The translations under genes were made by a program, and so were the position numbers. Below, piece by piece: positions 4,937-44,771 of a stretch of 64,000 bases of DNA. Positions within the stretch are counted from its first letter, which is position 1. Each line of letters begins with the position of its first letter. Below the pieces are notes generated by a model that made no database searches, was not told the DNA's origin, and saw only the letters and a program-made list of their open reading frames with translations. Source of the DNA: a phage; the NCBI GenBank assembly GCA_019385495.1, contig GCA_019385495.1_4102.1; one strand, written 5' to 3'.

Positions 4937-6355
4937 ATGAGCATTTTAGCAATTCTTGAAAGCATTAAAAATACTAGCAGTACTCTGGGCAAAAAGGCTA
5001 TTCTTGAACAAAATAAAGATAATGTAACTTTGCAAAAAGTTCTGAAATATACACTCGATCCTAGTATTGTAAGTGGGTATAAAAAGCTACCAGACGCTGA
5101 TAACGTGTATCAACATATGACATTGGATGAAGCTATTGATAAACTAGAATGCATCTATAAGCGTGCATTGACGGGACATACAGGGCGTGATTTCATTGCT
5201 TCAGTACTAGGTAGTGTGAGTCCAGATGATGCTGAAGTTCTTCGTAAGATGCTTACAAAGAACTTAGATTGTGGTATTCAAGAAAAGAACTGCAATGATG
5301 TATTTGGTAAAGGATTTATTAAAGATGAACCATATATGCGTTGTTCTTTGCTTGATAAAAAGACTGTTAAGAACATCAACTTCAAAGGTCATGGTTATGC
5401 TGTCTCCGAGGTCAAGATGGATGGTCAGTACTTAAACCATGTAGTCATTAATGGTGCTCTTACCTCTTCCTCCCGTAATGGTAAACTATATGACTTCTTA
5501 GGTTGTCGTGATGGTGAGATGGCAGGTCTTGCACATCAAATTCAAATGAATGATGAACGTTTTAGTAGTGGTGTCGTCTTTATGGGTGAAGGTCTAGTAC
5601 TTGATAATGACGGTGAAACTATTCTTCCACGAACAACTGGTAATGGTATCATTCAGAAGGCTGGTAAAGATAGTATTAGTCAGAATGAAGCAATGCGTAC
5701 TGTATTTGTACTATGGGATGTTGTTCCGTATGATGCATTCTGTGAAGGTACATGGAATGTAAAACGTAAAGAACGTCGCGAACTTCTTGAATCTGCCATC
5801 AATGTATTGGGTAGTGATTTTGTACGTATGGTGAAATACCGTAAGGTTCAAAACATTAAAGAAGCATTTGAGTACAATAACGAACTCATGGATCAGGGTG
5901 AAGAAGGATCAGTACTGAAATGTGAAGATGGTATCTGGAAATCACATACATCTCCTAAGCAGTTGAAAGTAAAACTAAAAATGCAATTGGATTTGCGTAT
6001 TGTTGGTTTCAACGAAGGTGAAGGTAAGCGTAAAGGTTCACTTGGTTCTTTACAACTTGAAAGTGCATGTGGCACACTGAAGGTAAATGTAGGAACAGGT
6101 ATCCGTGAAAAAGATGCAGAGTGGACATTCAAAACCATTTGGGAACGAATGCAAGAACTAATTGGTAAAGTCGTTACCGTTGAGTGCAATGAGATTGTAA
6201 TCGACAAGCGTACAGGTGAACCATCACTATTTTTACCAGTGTTTATTGAATTTAGATTTGACAAAAACACTTGTGACGATTATACTCGTATCTTAGAAAT
6301 TCGTGATAGTGCTGTTGAGGTGTTCTCTAACAGTATTATTGAAGCACTTAGCTAA
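4937..6355 (+). CDS. ATP-dependent DNA ligase (T4 gp30-like)
   Basis: N-terminus KKAILEQNKDN matches T4 ligase KQAILEKNKDN as recalled; KxDG motif (SEVKMDGQ); EGLVLD; C-terminal LFLPVFIEFRFDK resembles ligase motif VI. Confidence 0.85.
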   Translation: MSILAILESIKNTSSTLGKKAILEQNKDNVTLQKVLKYTLDPSIVSGYKKLPDADNVYQHMTLDEAIDKLECIYKRALTGHTGRDFIASVLGSVSPDDAEVLRKMLTKNLDCGIQEKNCNDVFGKGFIKDEPYMRCSLLDKKTVKNINFKGHGYAVSEVKMDGQYLNHVVINGALTSSSRNGKLYDFLGCRDGEMAGLAHQIQMNDERFSSGVVFMGEGLVLDNDGETILPRTTGNGIIQKAGKDSISQNEAMRTVFVLWDVVPYDAFCEGTWNVKRKERRELLESAINVLGSDFVRMVKYRKVQNIKEAFEYNNELMDQGEEGSVLKCEDGIWKSHTSPKQLKVKLKMQLDLRIVGFNEGEGKRKGSLGSLQLESACGTLKVNVGTGIREKDAEWTFKTIWERMQELIGKVVTVECNEIVIDKRTGEPSLFLPVFIEFRFDKNTCDDYTRILEIRDSAVEVFSNSIIEALS

Positions 6356-6374: not shown

Positions 6375-7166
6375 ATGAAATTTGTTGTAACATCTGACGT
6401 ACACGGTGGAACTGATTACCTCCATCGCGGTGATTACAGTGATGTAGTACTGATCATTGCTGGGGACTTCGATGAAGTTAAACGCAGTCGTTACCGTACT
6501 GGTATCGAATCACTGTGTAAGCAGTTCAAAAATGTAGTACTGGTTCCAGGTAATCACGAATATTATGGTTCAAATATCATCAAAACGCATAAAGTACTAT
6601 CCAATATGCAGGATGAGATTCCTAATTTTATCTTTTTGCAAAACAAATTTGTATGGCTGGATGGAGTACTGCTTGTTGGTAGTACTCTGTGGACAGACTT
6701 CGATAAAGGTAATTCTTTGACGAAGTTTGATGCTCGTCAGAAGATGAACGATTACAAACATATCCGTCATGGAACAACATCAGAGCCTTGGCGTAAGAAA
6801 CTGACACCTGATGATACTGAGTTTATGCATCACAAAGATAAACAATTTATCAAAAATTCTATTGACACAGTTCGCTTTATGCATGATAATGATTTCAAGG
6901 TCATCGTGATTACTCATCACGCACCAAGTTATCAAAGTGTTTCACCAAAATATAAAAATGATTCACTAAATGGTTGTTACTGTTCCGATATGGATCAGTA
7001 CATTGAAGATTTGGGTGCTGATGTTTGGATTCATGGTCATGTTCATAGTAGCTTTGACTACCACATTGGTAAGACACGTATCATTTGTAATCCACGAGGC
7101 TATGAATCGTATAGTGGATCTTGTGAGAATTTTGATTACAATCCTAAATTTGTATTTGAAATTTAA
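6375..7166 (+). CDS. calcineurin-like metallophosphoesterase
   Basis: DVHGG, GDFD, GNHEYY, HHAP, GHVH motifs; RBS GGAGG at 6365; ORF-track start 6303 probably too early. Confidence 0.75.
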   Translation: MKFVVTSDVHGGTDYLHRGDYSDVVLIIAGDFDEVKRSRYRTGIESLCKQFKNVVLVPGNHEYYGSNIIKTHKVLSNMQDEIPNFIFLQNKFVWLDGVLLVGSTLWTDFDKGNSLTKFDARQKMNDYKHIRHGTTSEPWRKKLTPDDTEFMHHKDKQFIKNSIDTVRFMHDNDFKVIVITHHAPSYQSVSPKYKNDSLNGCYCSDMDQYIEDLGADVWIHGHVHSSFDYHIGKTRIICNPRGYESYSGSCENFDYNPKFVFEI

Positions 7167-31731: not shown

Positions 31732-32298
31732 ATGGTCAAATCTTTATTACCGCCACCAAAACGTCACAAAATCAAAGAAATGAAAGAACAACGTACATTA
31801 AAGATGTACATCAATTTAGTTAAGTTACTGTGTAAAAGTCCATCGCTCAAAGCAGAGTTTAAAACTGATGATGACCGCAAAGCACTAATTGAGATGAAGT
31901 ATATGCTCAGTAAAATGTCCTTTTACAAATTTGTAAAAGAATACGCATCTGACCCATTTAGTCCTCGTTGGAGAGCCAAACCAAGAGAGTATTTTTACGG
32001 TGGTTCATATACGGATCTCATTCAAGACACAGTGATGGGAGTTGAATTTGAAATCGATTATGAGCCGAATGGTGTGGAAAGCTGGCCGATTGAGAAACGT
32101 TTACCAAGTGAAGAAGAAATTTATGTTTATGCAAGAAAACTTTCAAATTTCAGTTCAAGAATTACTCTAGGCAATTTAGATTCATTTATTATTTTCTATA
32201 CACGTGTTGGTGTAGATAAAATGGTAACTAAACTCAATGAACTTTCATTACAACAAAAACAGATTAATGCATACAAAGACATTACTGATTTATACTAA
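31732..32298 (+). CDS. hypothetical protein, tandem paralog 1
   Basis: Shared D-R/K..Y-K/M-LSK motif with the next two genes. Confidence 0.45.
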   Translation: MVKSLLPPPKRHKIKEMKEQRTLKMYINLVKLLCKSPSLKAEFKTDDDRKALIEMKYMLSKMSFYKFVKEYASDPFSPRWRAKPREYFYGGSYTDLIQDTVMGVEFEIDYEPNGVESWPIEKRLPSEEEIYVYARKLSNFSSRITLGNLDSFIIFYTRVGVDKMVTKLNELSLQQKQINAYKDITDLY

Positions 32299-32304
32299 TG
32301 AGGA

Positions 32305-32823
32305 ATGGATATGTTTTTTGGATCAGTTGGAAAACAAAACAGTACTTTAATTTGGCATGAAATTATCTTTAAAATTATATCTAAAAGCTACTCACTAAAG
32401 GATATTATCACCACAGATAATGATAGACGTATCCTGTTAGATGCAAAATATAAATTGAGCAAACACCCTTTACTTTCTTTAATCATTGATTACGTTAATG
32501 ATTATGAATCTAGTCGTTGGAAGTGGGAAGACGGCGGTTTATTTCGTGGAAAAACATTCTACGGTGCGGAACGATATGTTTTCAGTGATACATCAAATGG
32601 CGTTAAGTTTGTTATTAGAAACTTTAACTCCAAAGAAAATGATTATCTTGAAAGTGGAGTGAAAGTATATATCGATAATAGCAATGTACTAACATATGAC
32701 GAATCACTAATTATGTTACAAATAATGCGTGGAGTTGAAGGTGTAAGAAACAACCTTACTAAATTGAAAATCCAGCAAAATGATATACATAATAGACAGA
32801 AAATTAAGGGTTTATATAAATGA
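32305..32823 (+). CDS. hypothetical protein, tandem paralog 2
   Basis: Paralogous to 31732-32298. Confidence 0.45.
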   Translation: MDMFFGSVGKQNSTLIWHEIIFKIISKSYSLKDIITTDNDRRILLDAKYKLSKHPLLSLIIDYVNDYESSRWKWEDGGLFRGKTFYGAERYVFSDTSNGVKFVIRNFNSKENDYLESGVKVYIDNSNVLTYDESLIMLQIMRGVEGVRNNLTKLKIQQNDIHNRQKIKGLYK

Positions 32824-33329
32824 TTTCATTTTTCAAAAAGAAACAAAAAGTTGATGAAACCGGATTAGAATCGTTTCTATGGACTCTTATCATCAAAAAA
32901 AGTCCATTGATAAAAGAATATGCTATCAATGATGCTAATAGAAAAACTATCATTGAATACAAATACGAATTATCAAAATGTGATCCAATCGTTTATCACT
33001 TTGCGAAGTACTGTTCAAAAAATTTATCGGATATCACAATCGACCACGAGTCAGTCCCGATGAGTTTTCCTTATGGTGATTGGGTAGATACTTTTGATAT
33101 TTTTGATGGGTCAAATGGTTTCAGTTTCTTTTACTCGTCAAATAAAGCAAATGTTCGTATTAAAACAGACATAGGTTGGACACAGCATAGCTCAAATAAA
33201 GAAGATTATAATTTATTAGCTGACGTATACCGAAGTGTGAAGAATTCAAAGGATATTGATGAAAGAATTAAAAAGCAAAATCGTATATCTTTATCACTTG
33301 AAACATACAAGTCAAAGTATGGTGGTTAA
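32820..33329 (+). CDS. hypothetical protein, tandem paralog 3
   Basis: Paralogous; ATGA overlap. Confidence 0.45.
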   Translation: MISFFKKKQKVDETGLESFLWTLIIKKSPLIKEYAINDANRKTIIEYKYELSKCDPIVYHFAKYCSKNLSDITIDHESVPMSFPYGDWVDTFDIFDGSNGFSFFYSSNKANVRIKTDIGWTQHSSNKEDYNLLADVYRSVKNSKDIDERIKKQNRISLSLETYKSKYGG

Positions 33330-33331
33330 CT

Positions 33332-33733
33332 ATGACTACAGTTGATGATATCTATAGCACTATACGCAATATGAGTACAGATAGAAAAGTATTTGGCGAT
33401 AAAGAAAAATCTAAGTGTTATGGTATTGATTCTTTTGATATAATTTCTTATGAGTACAATACAAGTGGAAATAGTTCACTGAATATCGTCTGTCCTCGTG
33501 ACCCAGAAAATAATTTTATGTATGTTGAAATTAATAATGATGGAATGTTTTTTACAAAAGTTTTCAAAGGTGGAATTAATTACGAACCTATTGAATGTAT
33601 GAATGAAGAAACTTTCTTTCAAGAAGATACAATTATCAATTTAGGTTTTAGTTTTGATGATTATAAAACATTAGAACATGACTTTAATCGTTATTATAAT
33701 GGTTTCTTAAAGGAGTTAACAATTTATCTATGA
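33332..33733 (+). CDS. hypothetical protein
   Basis: ORF. Confidence 0.4.
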   Translation: MTTVDDIYSTIRNMSTDRKVFGDKEKSKCYGIDSFDIISYEYNTSGNSSLNIVCPRDPENNFMYVEINNDGMFFTKVFKGGINYEPIECMNEETFFQEDTIINLGFSFDDYKTLEHDFNRYYNGFLKELTIYL

Positions 33734-36000
33734 ATAACCAATATATTGAACAAACAATAGTGAAACACTTGGCTGGGTCACAAGCCTACGGAACCAGTAC
33801 ACCTGAAAGTGATACTGATTATCGTGGTATTTTTCTTGCTAATAAAGAATTTATTCTTACACCCTTCTATAAGGTCAAAGAGGTAGCTGATAAAAGCGAA
33901 GAAGATACTAAATTCTATGAGTTGAATCAGTATTTAAAATTATACACTGAAGCTAACCCTAATATTCTTGAATCACTTTGGGTTGAACCTGAACACATTG
34001 TTGAAAGTACTGAAATTTATGACTATCTTCGTTCATTTAACCAAAAACTTCTTAGTTCCAAGATTGCATTTTCATATACTGGTTATGCATATAATCAGAT
34101 TAAGCGTATGACAAATCATCACGGTTGGATGGATAAAGAGCGTATTGCTGAAAAACGATTAAATGAGATTTTAGAAGAACACCCTGTCGATGAGGTTCTT
34201 GCGTGGATGTATGATTCATTCCCACAGTATCTTGTTGAACGTTTAGATACATCGAACTTACATCCATTTAATGCTAAAAAGATTGATTTTGAAAAATATA
34301 TGCGTGATACATCATTGCAGTTAGTTTCGAAAAATCCATTAAAGCAATATCATTTCGTAAGATTAGTGCATAACTACACTACTGAAAAAATTCTTGATCG
34401 TGATTTCAATTTATTGAATTTTAATAATGGTTATGAACTAATTCATTACGGAGAAAACATTTTTGCGATTGTTAAAAATCCGAATGAAAGTACTATCAAT
34501 GGTGATGGTTCATTGCGTTATTTTTCTAAAGAGCGTAGTACTGAAGAGTTGAAAACTAAACCAGAACTAATTGTCAAATTTAACGAAAAAGAATATCAGG
34601 AAAATAGTGAGAATAGGAAAAGTTATCATAAATGGAAAGAAAATCGTAATGCCAAACGTGCTATTTTAGAATCACAACACGGATACGACTGTTATAGTTT
34701 TGATACTGAATTCTTAACTAAAGATGGTTGGAAATTATTTGACGACATCACTGATAAAGATCTATTAGCGACTTTTGATAAAAATCACAAAATAGAGTAT
34801 CAAAAATACACAGAACGTTTTGATAATTTATACAATGGAAATCTTTACCATTTCACTGGTCATCACCAAGATACGTTAGTGACTGCAAATCACAGAATGT
34901 ATGTTAAGAATTATGCACGTAATCAGCAAAAAGATATGTCAGAATGGCAATTTGTTGAAGCAGCACAATTAAAAGAAACTTATAAAATTTTGAATACATT
35001 ATCTCCAATAACAAAGGAATATAAAGATAAAAAAAGCCCAATTGACTATATGGATATCAAAGTTTATCTTCAACTGATGGGATGGTTTCTTTCAGATGGT
35101 AGTATAAGTTTTAGAGATGGAAAAGTAAAATCATTATACATTTCACAATCAAAAGCCAGTCCTGGTATGCGTTGTGCTTTATCAAAATACAAACAATCTG
35201 GACAAATGATATTTCAGGAATACATTAACGAAAGAAAAGATTACCAATCAAATGATGAATCAAGATTTGTATTTCCACGTGAAGTGGCTGAAGCATTATA
35301 TAATGATTGTGGGCATGGATCATATAATAAAAGAATTCCAAATTGGGCATTTGATTTAACAAAACGAAAAATGGATTTTCTGCTAAAAGGTTTGTTGCAA
35401 GGTGATGGTACAAAACGTAATTTGGTCAATCATGATGACACATATGTATATTATACTGCTAATTCATTATTAGCTGATGATGTTCAAAAACTAGCATTAC
35501 TGTGCGGTTATGAAACATCGAAATGGGGACCATACACAAACGAAACTAATTTTGGTTATATTGAAATGTATCAAGTTCATATCAATATGAAACCTAAATC
35601 AGAAAAAATAAACATGAAACAAAATCTTGAAAAAATTCCAGTAACTAACTACAGAACTGTTTGTTTTTCAGTTCCGAACGGTACACTGGTTACTCGTAGA
35701 AATGGTAAAACTGCATTACATGGAAACTGTAAACATGCTATGCACACAATCCGACTTTTGAATAGTGCAGAAGAAGCATTACAAAGTGGAATTATTCAAG
35801 TTAAACGACCAGATGCACAAATGTTGATGGATATTCGTAATGGTAAATGGAAGTATGAAGAAGTCTTAGAATATTTCGATGATAAAGTACAATACATTCG
35901 TGATGTTCTATATAAGAAATCAGTACTTCCTAAAAAACCAAACATCAAGTTAGCATCAAAAATTATCATTGATATTAGAGAAATGCAATGGTATAAGTAA
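33730..36000 (+). CDS. nucleotidyltransferase-fold protein interrupted by an intein
   Basis: N-terminal GSQAYG..SDTDYRG minimal NTase motif; internal intein-like segment of about 346 aa. Confidence 0.6.
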   Translation: MNNQYIEQTIVKHLAGSQAYGTSTPESDTDYRGIFLANKEFILTPFYKVKEVADKSEEDTKFYELNQYLKLYTEANPNILESLWVEPEHIVESTEIYDYLRSFNQKLLSSKIAFSYTGYAYNQIKRMTNHHGWMDKERIAEKRLNEILEEHPVDEVLAWMYDSFPQYLVERLDTSNLHPFNAKKIDFEKYMRDTSLQLVSKNPLKQYHFVRLVHNYTTEKILDRDFNLLNFNNGYELIHYGENIFAIVKNPNESTINGDGSLRYFSKERSTEELKTKPELIVKFNEKEYQENSENRKSYHKWKENRNAKRAILESQHGYDCYSFDTEFLTKDGWKLFDDITDKDLLATFDKNHKIEYQKYTERFDNLYNGNLYHFTGHHQDTLVTANHRMYVKNYARNQQKDMSEWQFVEAAQLKETYKILNTLSPITKEYKDKKSPIDYMDIKVYLQLMGWFLSDGSISFRDGKVKSLYISQSKASPGMRCALSKYKQSGQMIFQEYINERKDYQSNDESRFVFPREVAEALYNDCGHGSYNKRIPNWAFDLTKRKMDFLLKGLLQGDGTKRNLVNHDDTYVYYTANSLLADDVQKLALLCGYETSKWGPYTNETNFGYIEMYQVHINMKPKSEKINMKQNLEKIPVTNYRTVCFSVPNGTLVTRRNGKTALHGNCKHAMHTIRLLNSAEEALQSGIIQVKRPDAQMLMDIRNGKWKYEEVLEYFDDKVQYIRDVLYKKSVLPKKPNIKLASKIIIDIREMQWYK
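34690..35727 (+). mobile_element. intein with LAGLIDADG homing-endonuclease motifs
   Basis: Starts CYSFDTEF (block A-like), VTANHRMYV (block B TxxH), LMGWFLSDGS and LKGLLQGDGT (LAGLIDADG-like), ends ..ALHGN followed by Cys. Confidence 0.55.
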
Positions 36001-36014
36001 CATATACAAGTGTA

Positions 36015-36206
36015 ATGGTACTAAAAATGCCATTACACTCAATAAATACTCAATATAAATTAACACAAGGATTAAGTATGGCACAACAAATTTTCACAGA
36101 TATCCACACTACCGGAGTTATTAAATTTCAAAATAATTTTTCAGGTGCAACTGGTGTAGACATTAAAAATGATGGTTTTAACATTATCAGTACTCGGATC
36201 TATTGA
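36015..36206 (+). CDS. hypothetical protein (possibly 5' part of a frameshifted gene)
   Basis: ORF overlapping the next by 38 nt in another frame. Confidence 0.3.
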   Translation: MVLKMPLHSINTQYKLTQGLSMAQQIFTDIHTTGVIKFQNNFSGATGVDIKNDGFNIISTRIY

Positions 36207-36705
36207 TGGTGAAGATAGTTCTCTTAGTGATTCTGTGATTGCATCATTCGGAACTAATAAAAACAGTTCTTTTATTATATCTGGATGGACTGGAATGACT
36301 GATTCTGAAAATAATGTTAAGATAAAAGCTAAAGCTACTAACGAGAATCATGAAACAGAATGGGTAACATTATATGATAGTGCAAGTAATAAGTTATATA
36401 ATGTACTAAGTTCTAATAATATTTTAATTAATCCACTGTCGGGCAATGCTGTTTTTAATATTAATTTATCTGATAGAAATACTACTATTTCGATTGGTGC
36501 GGCTCCTACTGAAGTTTATTCAATTACCATCCTATTAACACAACAAACAGGTTCAAACCTAGTTAATTGGGGTTCTAATGTTAAATGGTCATATAACAGA
36601 CCAGTTGTTCTTTCTTATGAAATTGGTGAAAAAGATATTATTTCATTAGAAACATATGATAAAGGAGTTACATGGTACGGTGCATTAATTAGAGCAGGAG
36701 TATGA
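36169..36705 (+). CDS. hypothetical protein
   Basis: ORF. Confidence 0.4.
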   Translation: MMVLTLSVLGSIDGEDSSLSDSVIASFGTNKNSSFIISGWTGMTDSENNVKIKAKATNENHETEWVTLYDSASNKLYNVLSSNNILINPLSGNAVFNINLSDRNTTISIGAAPTEVYSITILLTQQTGSNLVNWGSNVKWSYNRPVVLSYEIGEKDIISLETYDKGVTWYGALIRAGV

Positions 36706-44405: not shown

Positions 44406-44417
44406 AAGAGGTTGAAC

Positions 44418-44771
44418 ATGAGTGATTACCGCGTAACATCTGGACTAATGGCACGTCTTATTGAAGCAGTTCCTGAAGATGATTATGAAGCTATTTCAGA
44501 TCGTCTTTTTGACGCAGATTCTAAACTCCATATTACATATGATGGTGCATTGATTTACAGTACTGATATTGATATGTCTAGTTATGAATTTGAGATTTCT
44601 TTTGGTAACAAACTAACTACTGAAGAATTCGCTCGAAAATGTGAGCGTGAAGGATTCTGTATTGATATTAGTTCAGTTCAGCCATATACATCACTGTGGT
44701 ATGATGGTGCTGATAGTCCAATGTCTACTACATCTTTACAGGATTTTCTAAATGCAAATCAAAAAGATTAA
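44418..44771 (+). CDS. hypothetical protein
   Basis: ATG after AGAGG. Confidence 0.45.
   Translation: MSDYRVTSGLMARLIEAVPEDDYEAISDRLFDADSKLHITYDGALIYSTDIDMSSYEFEISFGNKLTTEEFARKCEREGFCIDISSVQPYTSLWYDGADSPMSTTSLQDFLNANQKD

Follow-up and report, generated by a model that had tools for sequence, protein, structure and literature searches.

The DNA analysed here is a stretch of 64,000 nucleotides (nt), hereafter the window (GenBank assembly GCA_019385495.1, contig GCA_019385495.1_4102.1), of an Asteriusvirus-like Escherichia coli jumbo phage, in which a plus-strand open reading frame (ORF) of 756 amino acids (aa; 33730-36000) contains an in-frame insert of 346 aa (1,038 nt, 34690-35727) within a gene for an RlaP nucleotidyltransferase. 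This insert is very probably a bifunctional intein, composed of a Hint splicing domain and a nested LAGLIDADG homing endonuclease, which occupies the "NT" (Nuc-transf) site of the RlaP gene and which splices and homes as proposed below. Elements of this type, NT-site LAGLIDADG inteins, are already known from mycobacteriophages, and finding one in an E. coli jumbo phage is no surprise to specialists. An original prediction, read from the sequence, had proposed a LAGLIDADG intein within a nucleotidyltransferase gene; the motifs, alleles of the gene that are empty of the insert and the fold support this core reading, and we found each of the motifs it cited where it had placed them (Table 1). Conceptual removal of the insert gives a spliced product of 410 aa, and the computed masses are 89.4 kDa for the precursor, 48.9 kDa for the ligated exteins and 40.6 kDa for the intein. 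The 756-aa ORF is not an assembly artefact, because exactly the same protein, with the same neighbour genes, recurs on two independent read-archive assemblies.

Empty alleles define a clean insertion

The window and phage 121Q are collinear, with a nucleotide identity of 96-99%. When the entire ORF was used as a nucleotide query, 26 phage records were returned; for 24 of these only 54% of the query was matched, by two segments that lie directly next to each other in the target. When the conceptual spliced protein was compared with these genomes (the 121Q/PBECO4 group, Asteriusvirus), it gave a single continuous match with 96-99.8% identity, and with 99-99.8% in more than 20 phages. In both 121Q and PBECO4 the gene is an uninterrupted 1,233 nt, is annotated as "nucleotidyltransferase" and reads ...CACGGATACGAT/TGTAAACATGC... 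(a slash marks a junction throughout), while in the window the two halves are set apart by exactly 1,038 nt. Both junctions are thereby fixed to the nucleotide, with the insertion point at GAY (Asp320)/TGT (Cys+1), and the C-extein is collinear with gene 506 of 121Q (272 of 273 nt identical). A collection of 5.8 billion proteins was searched with the spliced product; of its 120 best homologues there, 119 are intein-free and 287-447 aa long; the other (P0140, 686 aa) has an intein at the same site as the window. The only other Asteriusvirus record with the intein is TH47 (MT446416.1; L002 1492-3768), an UNVERIFIED and unannotated genome. P0001, a TH47-like fragment of this intein-bearing protein, is also filed under Escherichia coli as a partial hypothetical protein and presumably stems from phage DNA within a bacterial assembly.

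We also checked whether the central region occurs in homologues as a native part of the protein, which would speak against an intein. Near-identical and distant homologues alike are without it, and aligning the exteins to intein-free homologues, a check proposed together with the original prediction, confirmed a clean insertion with exact junctions. An alternative explanation is that the central region is immobile, being a native domain, an intron or the gene of a free-standing endonuclease, in frame by chance in the latter two cases. The continuous reading frame is all that speaks for this, whereas the homologues, close and distant, lack precisely this region and both ends of the insert build a Hint fold (see below). 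A scan of nt 33500-36300 gave no match to any Rfam family, and the insert is therefore not an intron. With the empty alleles refuting it, we assign this explanation next to no probability.

The insert has the fold of a two-domain intein

The LAGLIDADG_3 model of Pfam matched the insert with E = 4.5e-6, above the curated cut-off. The 70 N-terminal residues of the intein align to the AceL NrdHF intein (PDB 6zgq), including the NHRM motif, with E = 0.003 for the single sequence, and a family profile of the splicing domain found the same structure in the PDB with E = 7e-7. An AlphaFold model of the insert, built with 38 relatives, reached a mean predicted local distance difference test (pLDDT) score of 95.1 and a predicted template modelling (pTM) score of 0.93, and in it the N- and C-terminal segments together form a Hint fold. 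The top PDB matches of this model in Foldseek were the TliVMA, PI-SceI, PhoVMA and PI-PkoII inteins (E from 3e-15 to 1e-9), followed by the free LAGLIDADG enzymes I-DmoI and I-SceI and then by Hint domains of hedgehog autoprocessing and bacterial intein-like (BIL) proteins. The endonuclease domain was modelled as two alpha-beta-beta-alpha-beta-beta-alpha halves, with LAGLIDADG helices that end in Asp136 and Asp239. It carries both motifs of a double-motif enzyme (LMGWFLSD136G and LKGLLQGD239G) with their glycines intact. With the junctions set by the empty alleles, these profile and fold matches far exceed what chance would give.

The insertion divides a conserved motif of the host enzyme

The host protein belongs to RlaP (formerly Nuc-transf, PF10127), which Pfam matched at aa 13-131 with E = 1e-14 to 6e-16, above the cut-off; the nucleotidyltransferase family phrog_388 matches the gene in two stretches (E = 1.8e-77). 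The Pol-beta motif residues G16, S17, D28 and D30 show little or no variation across homologues. RlaP is an RNA-ligase-associated Pol-beta nucleotidyltransferase that is predicted to repair damaged RNA ends by restoring nucleotides (Iyer et al. 2021, PMC7824862). A PDB sequence search with the spliced extein gave no match, and a fold search with the modelled host enzyme gave weak matches only, to the KNTase, MNT and HalB nucleotidyltransferases, none with E <= 0.001. No RNA ligase adjoins the host gene, whose neighbours are tail-fibre genes and genes of unknown function. Elsewhere in the window, an ATP-dependent ligase-family gene (4937-6355; PF01068, E = 1e-13) adjoins a calcineurin-like phosphoesterase gene (6375-7166; PF00149, E = 1e-13). 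The two were considered as RNA-repair partners of the RlaP enzyme, but no link was established, nor was there one to the CCA-adding enzyme gene of the window (52761-53873).

D320, K322, H326 and R329 (spliced numbering) are invariant in 48 homologues, and a confident model of the enzyme without its intein (pLDDT 91.9) places the junction in a turn ahead of the helix 321-340 that bears K322, H326 and R329. Within the C-terminal half of the host, no motif is more conserved than the one that the insertion divides, and the enzyme therefore needs splicing to be active. We place the insertion site inside the RlaP domain, because the spliced form of the intein-bearing gp3 of mycobacteriophage Alice covers the RlaP profile from end to end (E = 7e-54).

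Proposed mechanism and splicing competence

Translation of the gene would yield an 89-kDa precursor, which would most likely splice by the class 1 pathway. Cys1 would form a thioester at the Asp320-Cys1 bond, the N-extein would be moved onto Cys+1, cyclisation of Asn346 would free the 40.6-kDa intein, and an S-to-N shift would rebuild ...HGYD-CKHAMH... in the 48.9-kDa active enzyme. On co-infection, the endonuclease of the free intein would cut an uninterrupted allele at the junction ...CACGGATACGAT/TGTAAACATGC..., and repair of the cut allele from the intein-bearing copy would spread the element (homing).

In a catalytic table of 38 relatives, position 1 is Cys in 37 of 37, B:10 is His in every case (His68 of the window intein, in block B T65-A-N-H68), the C-terminal residue G:7 is Asn in all but one, and the +1 residue is always Cys, Ser or Thr, with Asn346/Cys+1 in the window. 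The acidic residues of the endonuclease are conserved across relatives. The penultimate residue G:6 is Gly (37/38), and F:4 is Cys in 33 relatives and the canonical Asp in two (VYDLTV and VYDVTV). Two residues typical of class 1 inteins, though not obligatory, namely G:6 His and F:4 Asp, are replaced in the window intein by Gly and Cys. HMMER aligned only the N-lobe to solved inteins and not blocks F and G, and F:4 was therefore assigned from the exchange of Cys and Asp within the family together with the motif spacing. Because two relatives have Asp at exactly this place, the F:4 position is fixed and its Cys is shown to be replaceable.

The original prediction had taken the terminal Gly-Asn (GN rather than HN) as a reason to doubt splicing competence. 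This doubt was not borne out, since Gly345 is clade-wide and a published GN intein splices: the RDF intein of phage Bethlehem has a penultimate Gly and splices completely, and exchange of this Gly for His slows splicing (Kelley et al. 2016, PMC5050341). The homologous Switzer gp53 RDF intein is 317 aa long, which fits the G316 numbering that Kelley et al. used for Bethlehem, and splicing without a G:6 His is documented more widely (PMC5050341 and references therein). Judged from these sequences, the GN end and the F:4 Cys are normal for this intein clade and not signs of decay. It is highly improbable that the GN terminus has made the intein splicing-dead and left this phage with an inactivated nucleotidyltransferase. 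The missing penultimate His would fit such a loss, as would the Chlamydomonas ClpP GN intein, which, as cited in PMC5050341 (its reference 52), spliced in E. coli only after a Gly-to-His exchange. But GN is the norm of the clade, including copies in essential genes such as ThyX, the Switzer homologue of the completely splicing Bethlehem intein aligns with ours end to end, selection on exteins and intein is strongly purifying (see below), and the frames are intact in the window, TH47 and P0140.

Several observations weigh against a functional intein of the proposed kind. Three assisting residues are non-canonical (Gly at G:6, Cys in place of Asp at F:4 and no His at F:13), and the nearest solved relative by sequence, the AceL NrdHF intein, is a class 3 intein. 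The intein and Hint models of Pfam did not match the sequence even at E <= 10, which left LAGLIDADG_3 as the only Pfam match in the insert, and an IMG/VR scan with the intein found no close relative. No convincing co-conversion tract was found, nor did the literature yield an experiment on any NT-site intein; splicing, splicing class and DNA cleavage are what we infer for the window intein. Overall, we conclude that the insert is a real and probably functional intein.

The block F Cys and the AceL match led us to consider class 3 as the principal reading, which we rejected after the table of 38 relatives had been compiled, as Cys1 is invariant and the F:4 Cys replaceable. AceL NrdHF-1-1 is a proven class 3 "MCT" intein (Hoffmann et al. 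2020, PMC7891396). Like the window intein, it has an NHRM motif that places Met at B:12, carries Cys at F:4 and has no His at either F:13 or G:6. However, AceL NrdHF-1-1 is naturally split and endonuclease-free, with Ala1 and Thr at G:5, whereas the window intein is contiguous and endonuclease-bearing, with Cys1 and His at G:5. In a class 3-like or dual-nucleophile route, Cys325, activated by His68, would attack the N-terminal junction and form a branched thioester, with Cys1 as an auxiliary or redox partner. Such a route would account for the Cys that most relatives have at F:4, the class 3 branch-point position, and for the residue pattern shared with AceL NrdHF, the best PDB sequence match. 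We nevertheless consider it improbable: class 3 is defined by the lack of a position-1 nucleophile while Cys1 never varies here, the two relatives with Asp at F:4 keep Cys1, so that the F:4 Cys is dispensable in the clade, and the Alice NT intein was grouped with class 1 (Kelley et al., PMC5050341). Moreover, the class 3 WCT triplet (Trp B:12, Cys F:4, Thr G:5) reads Met-Cys-His in the window, with only the Cys in common, and G:5 is His or Gln in the clade. Class 1 with an unusual F:4 is therefore favoured, because Cys1 is constant, F:4 is replaceable and G:5 is His or Gln and not Thr.

There is also a slight chance that the clade is a mechanistic intermediate between classes 1 and 3, defined by Cys1, F:4 Cys, B:12 Met, G:6 Gly and no F:13 His, with splicing via either nucleophile or gated by a disulfide. 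If so, Cys1, Cys325 and Cys+1 would crowd the active site, and whether the nucleotidyltransferase matures would depend on how oxidised or reduced the infected cell is.

Selection and horizontal spread

The two Asteriusvirus copies, in the window and in TH47, were compared by omega (dN/dS, the ratio of nonsynonymous to synonymous substitution rates) and by synonymous divergence (dS). Omega was 0.09 for the intein (0.04-0.05 for the Hint lobes and 0.13 for the endonuclease domain) and 0.05 for the exteins, and we therefore conclude that selection maintains both the element and its host gene. The dS of the intein was 0.56 (0.54 for the endonuclease domain) compared with more than 2, i.e., saturated, for the exteins (Fisher p = 1e-11). 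The common ancestor of the intein copies is accordingly more recent than that of the host genes. The distribution is sporadic, with the intein in only these two of about three dozen Asteriusvirus records that have the gene. Similarities of intein and extein to the window are also decoupled (C-extein 69% and intein 36% for P0140, 35% and 50% for the relative P0006). The contrast in dS, the sporadic distribution, this decoupling and the intact catalytic Asp residues together indicate, at the level of sequence comparison, that the intein spread horizontally by homing.

A co-conversion tract upstream of the intein was considered and rejected. Twelve of the 14 differences between the window and 121Q lie within 214 nt upstream of the intein, and seven of these 12 match TH47. 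The intein-free phages SP27, CRJP21, slurp01 and others have the same upstream haplotype (98.2-98.6%), and the pattern is thus ordinary mosaicism. Relative to close intein-free phages, only gene nt 960 and nt 1098 are specific to the window. The first is a silent GAT to GAC change directly 5' of the intein and is the only base common to the window and TH47 that is absent from the six close empty alleles examined. As a separate observation, the window differs from 121Q and PBECO4 by 11 closely spaced substitutions at 34476-34557 (gene nt 747-828), and the intein-free slurp01, SP27 and CRJP21 have the same patch. This makes the nucleotidyltransferase gene a recombination mosaic of haplotypes that circulate in Asteriusvirus, independent of the intein.

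Another explanation, which we regard as unlikely, is that the intein splices but its endonuclease has lost the ability to cut DNA, so that the element passes on by vertical inheritance or general recombination only. No donor-derived co-conversion tract is detectable, one adjacent silent base being all that differs, and decay of this kind does occur in the clade, since the catalytic Asp is lost in some relatives (P0006, with QGNGT, and P0014). However, Asp136, Asp239 and the motif glycines are intact in the window, the endonuclease domain keeps its low omega between copies that have diverged substantially at synonymous sites, and the intein is younger than the host genes, with incongruent intein and extein similarities. 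In addition, endonucleases of related mycobacteriophage inteins are active or toxic; for the Bethlehem RDF intein, an endonuclease-inactivating mutant was recovered because of toxicity (Kelley et al., PMC5050341).

Features of the gene and of the rest of the window

Table 1. Exteins, intein blocks and sequence motifs of the nucleotidyltransferase precursor. Protein positions are those of the 756-aa ORF unless the intein is named.
Feature	Window position (nt)	Strand	Protein position	Residues and evidence
N-extein	33730-34689	+	aa 1-320	Pol-beta catalytic core (GS...D.D, aa 16-30), lineage-specific middle, C-end ...WK.NRN..R...E...G.D320 invariant motif
GSQAYG			aa 16-21	Pol-beta nucleotidyltransferase signature with SDTDYRG
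SDTDYRG			aa 27-33	
Intein, 346 aa, 40.6 kDa	34690-35727	+	Cys1 to Asn346 of intein	Empty alleles, exact GAY/TGT junctions, model, fold matches
Hint N-terminal lobe	34690-35004	+	intein aa 1-105	Block A (Cys1, CYSFDTEFLT) and block B
CYSFDTEF	34690-34713		aa 321-328	
Block B, VTANHRM	34879-34905	+	aa 384-392 (VTANHRMYV)	Thr65, His68, Met70
LAGLIDADG homing-endonuclease domain	35056-35589	+	intein aa 123-300	Pfam LAGLIDADG_3, modelled secondary structure, fold matches
LAGLIDADG motif 1, LMGWFLSDGS	35074-35103	+	aa 449-458	Acidic residue Asp136
LAGLIDADG motif 2, LKGLLQGDGT	35383-35412	+	aa 552-561	Acidic residue Asp239
Hint C-terminal lobe	35596-35727	+	intein aa 303-346	Blocks F and G
Block F, TVCFSVPNGTLV	35662-35664 (Cys325)	+		Cys at position F:4
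Block G, NGKTALHGN	35719-35727 (His344-Gly345-Asn346)	+		
ALHGN	end at 35727		aa 662-666	Followed by Cys, aa 667
C-extein, 90 aa plus stop	35728-36000	+		+1 nucleophile Cys at 35728-35730; then K322, H326, R329 (spliced numbering)

The window has three insertions relative to 121Q, two of which are endonuclease-bearing and lie in or beside a gene for a Pol-beta-type RNA-repair nucleotidyltransferase. Besides the intein, this is a 629-nt insertion accounted for by a 208-aa ORF (52129-52755) that is absent from 121Q. The ORF matches PHROG "HNH endonuclease" families (phrog_953, E = 2.5e-66), has no Pfam match and, going by these family matches, looks like a free-standing homing-endonuclease gene. 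Directly downstream lies a gene for a CCA-adding tRNA nucleotidyltransferase (52761-53873; PF01743, E = 9e-18; phrog_2244, E = 1e-115), whose homologue in 121Q is annotated as "phosphatase". The third insertion (44408-44741, about 334 nt) corresponds to an ORF of 119 aa (44412-44771), the sole match of which is phrog_10749 (function unknown, E = 5e-42). Just upstream of the nucleotidyltransferase gene, three tandem ORFs of 188, 172 and 169 aa (31732-33329) share a recurring motif, ...DDR/NDR..L...KY.LSK... (here the slash separates variants), and look like paralogues; the one that was tested matched phrog_7868 (unknown function) and had no Pfam match.

Relatives at the same site and implications

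The original prediction regarded the host gene as unusual for an intein, but RlaP/Nuc-transf is a published intein host: Kelley et al. 2016 (PMC5050341) described 23 inteins in the "NT" (Nuc-transf) protein of mycobacteriophages of cluster C1, and the same host family (IPR018775) is listed again in a 2025 preprint (10.1101/2025.01.02.630785). For the related phages Rak2 and K64-1, terminase inteins have been reported (PMC5259590), and the literature searched holds no report of an intein in the nucleotidyltransferase of this group. A translated search with the window intein matched 242 phage records, 94 of them Mycobacterium phages; among the matches listed, the Mycobacterium gp3 copies were full-length with about 34% identity (E about 1e-47). 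Other phage carriers included the Pectobacterium phage DU_PP_I and the Prevotella Lak megaphages, with copies at the same site. About 20 metagenomic proteins have the same intein at the same site (35-52% identity), including some on contigs binned to Promethearchaeota, Nanoarchaeota and Candidatus Glassbacteria. Genes for ThyX, RNA polymerase and DNA polymerase harbour more distant relatives of the intein. When 20 intein-bearing alleles were aligned with one empty allele, a single site emerged, ...G[YFW]D/CY..TEFLT ... [HQ]GN/[CST]K.A.H..RL. The window intein lies between G-[YFW]-D and [CST]-K-x-A-x-H-x-x-R-L and is homologous to the others, as expected of an allele of the NT site.

Two of these carriers deserve mention for their annotation. 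Many mycobacteriophage records label Alice gp3 (L004 477-2348) and other gp3 proteins as "HNH endonuclease", which is wrong, as the nested endonuclease is of the LAGLIDADG type. Prevotella phage Lak-B9 (MK250028.1, L006 550-2847) has an unannotated 356-aa intein at the same site of an RlaP-type nucleotidyltransferase, with the junctions ...NYD/CYLNNETEFLT...FHGN/SKNMMH...

For annotation, these results mean that the gene encodes an intein-carrying nucleotidyltransferase precursor and neither a 756-aa enzyme nor an "HNH endonuclease". The window intein does not overturn current understanding, but it extends the range of one RlaP homing-site allele past actinophages to E. coli jumbo phages, one Pectobacterium phage, Prevotella megaphages and contigs that were binned to archaea or candidate phyla, and it illustrates well how widely such an element can spread given a conserved target motif. 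The near-identical empty (121Q, PBECO4 and others) and filled alleles form a ready pair for measuring homing in tractable E. coli, and the clade-wide GN terminus and F:4 Cys may be of interest to intein engineers.

Comparison with known systems

The closest characterised counterpart is the gp3 NT intein of C1 mycobacteriophages (Bixzunavirus) such as Alice, which sits at the same site of the same host family (RlaP; PF10127, IPR018775). It has the same Hint plus LAGLIDADG build of about 335-346 aa, with Cys1, NHRM, a block F VCF and an HGN end, and the Alice copy is a full-length homologue of the window intein (pairwise E = 1e-54). However, identity between the two is as low as 34% for the inteins and about 21% for the C-exteins, the window host is a Gram-negative jumbo myovirus while Alice is an actinophage, the +1 residue is Cys in the window and Thr in Alice, and the Pol-beta core of the window enzyme is separated from the C-terminal helices by an additional insert of about 170 aa. 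The Switzer gp53 RDF (metallophosphoesterase) intein, too, aligns with the window intein over the full length (E = 6e-13). The two have Cys1, TANHR, the F:4 Cys (in VWCLRV in Switzer) and the Gly-Asn end in common, the Switzer terminus being ...TGN/S. The RDF inteins (Bethlehem gp51, Switzer gp53) differ in host gene and site, in identity (22%) and in a degenerate first LAGLIDADG motif. The PI-SceI, TliVMA, PhoVMA and PI-PkoII inteins have the same two-domain architecture (TM about 0.55-0.62), but their identity to the window intein is about 10-12%, their hosts are VMA ATPases or DNA polymerases, their terminus is HN and they carry extra DNA-recognition regions.

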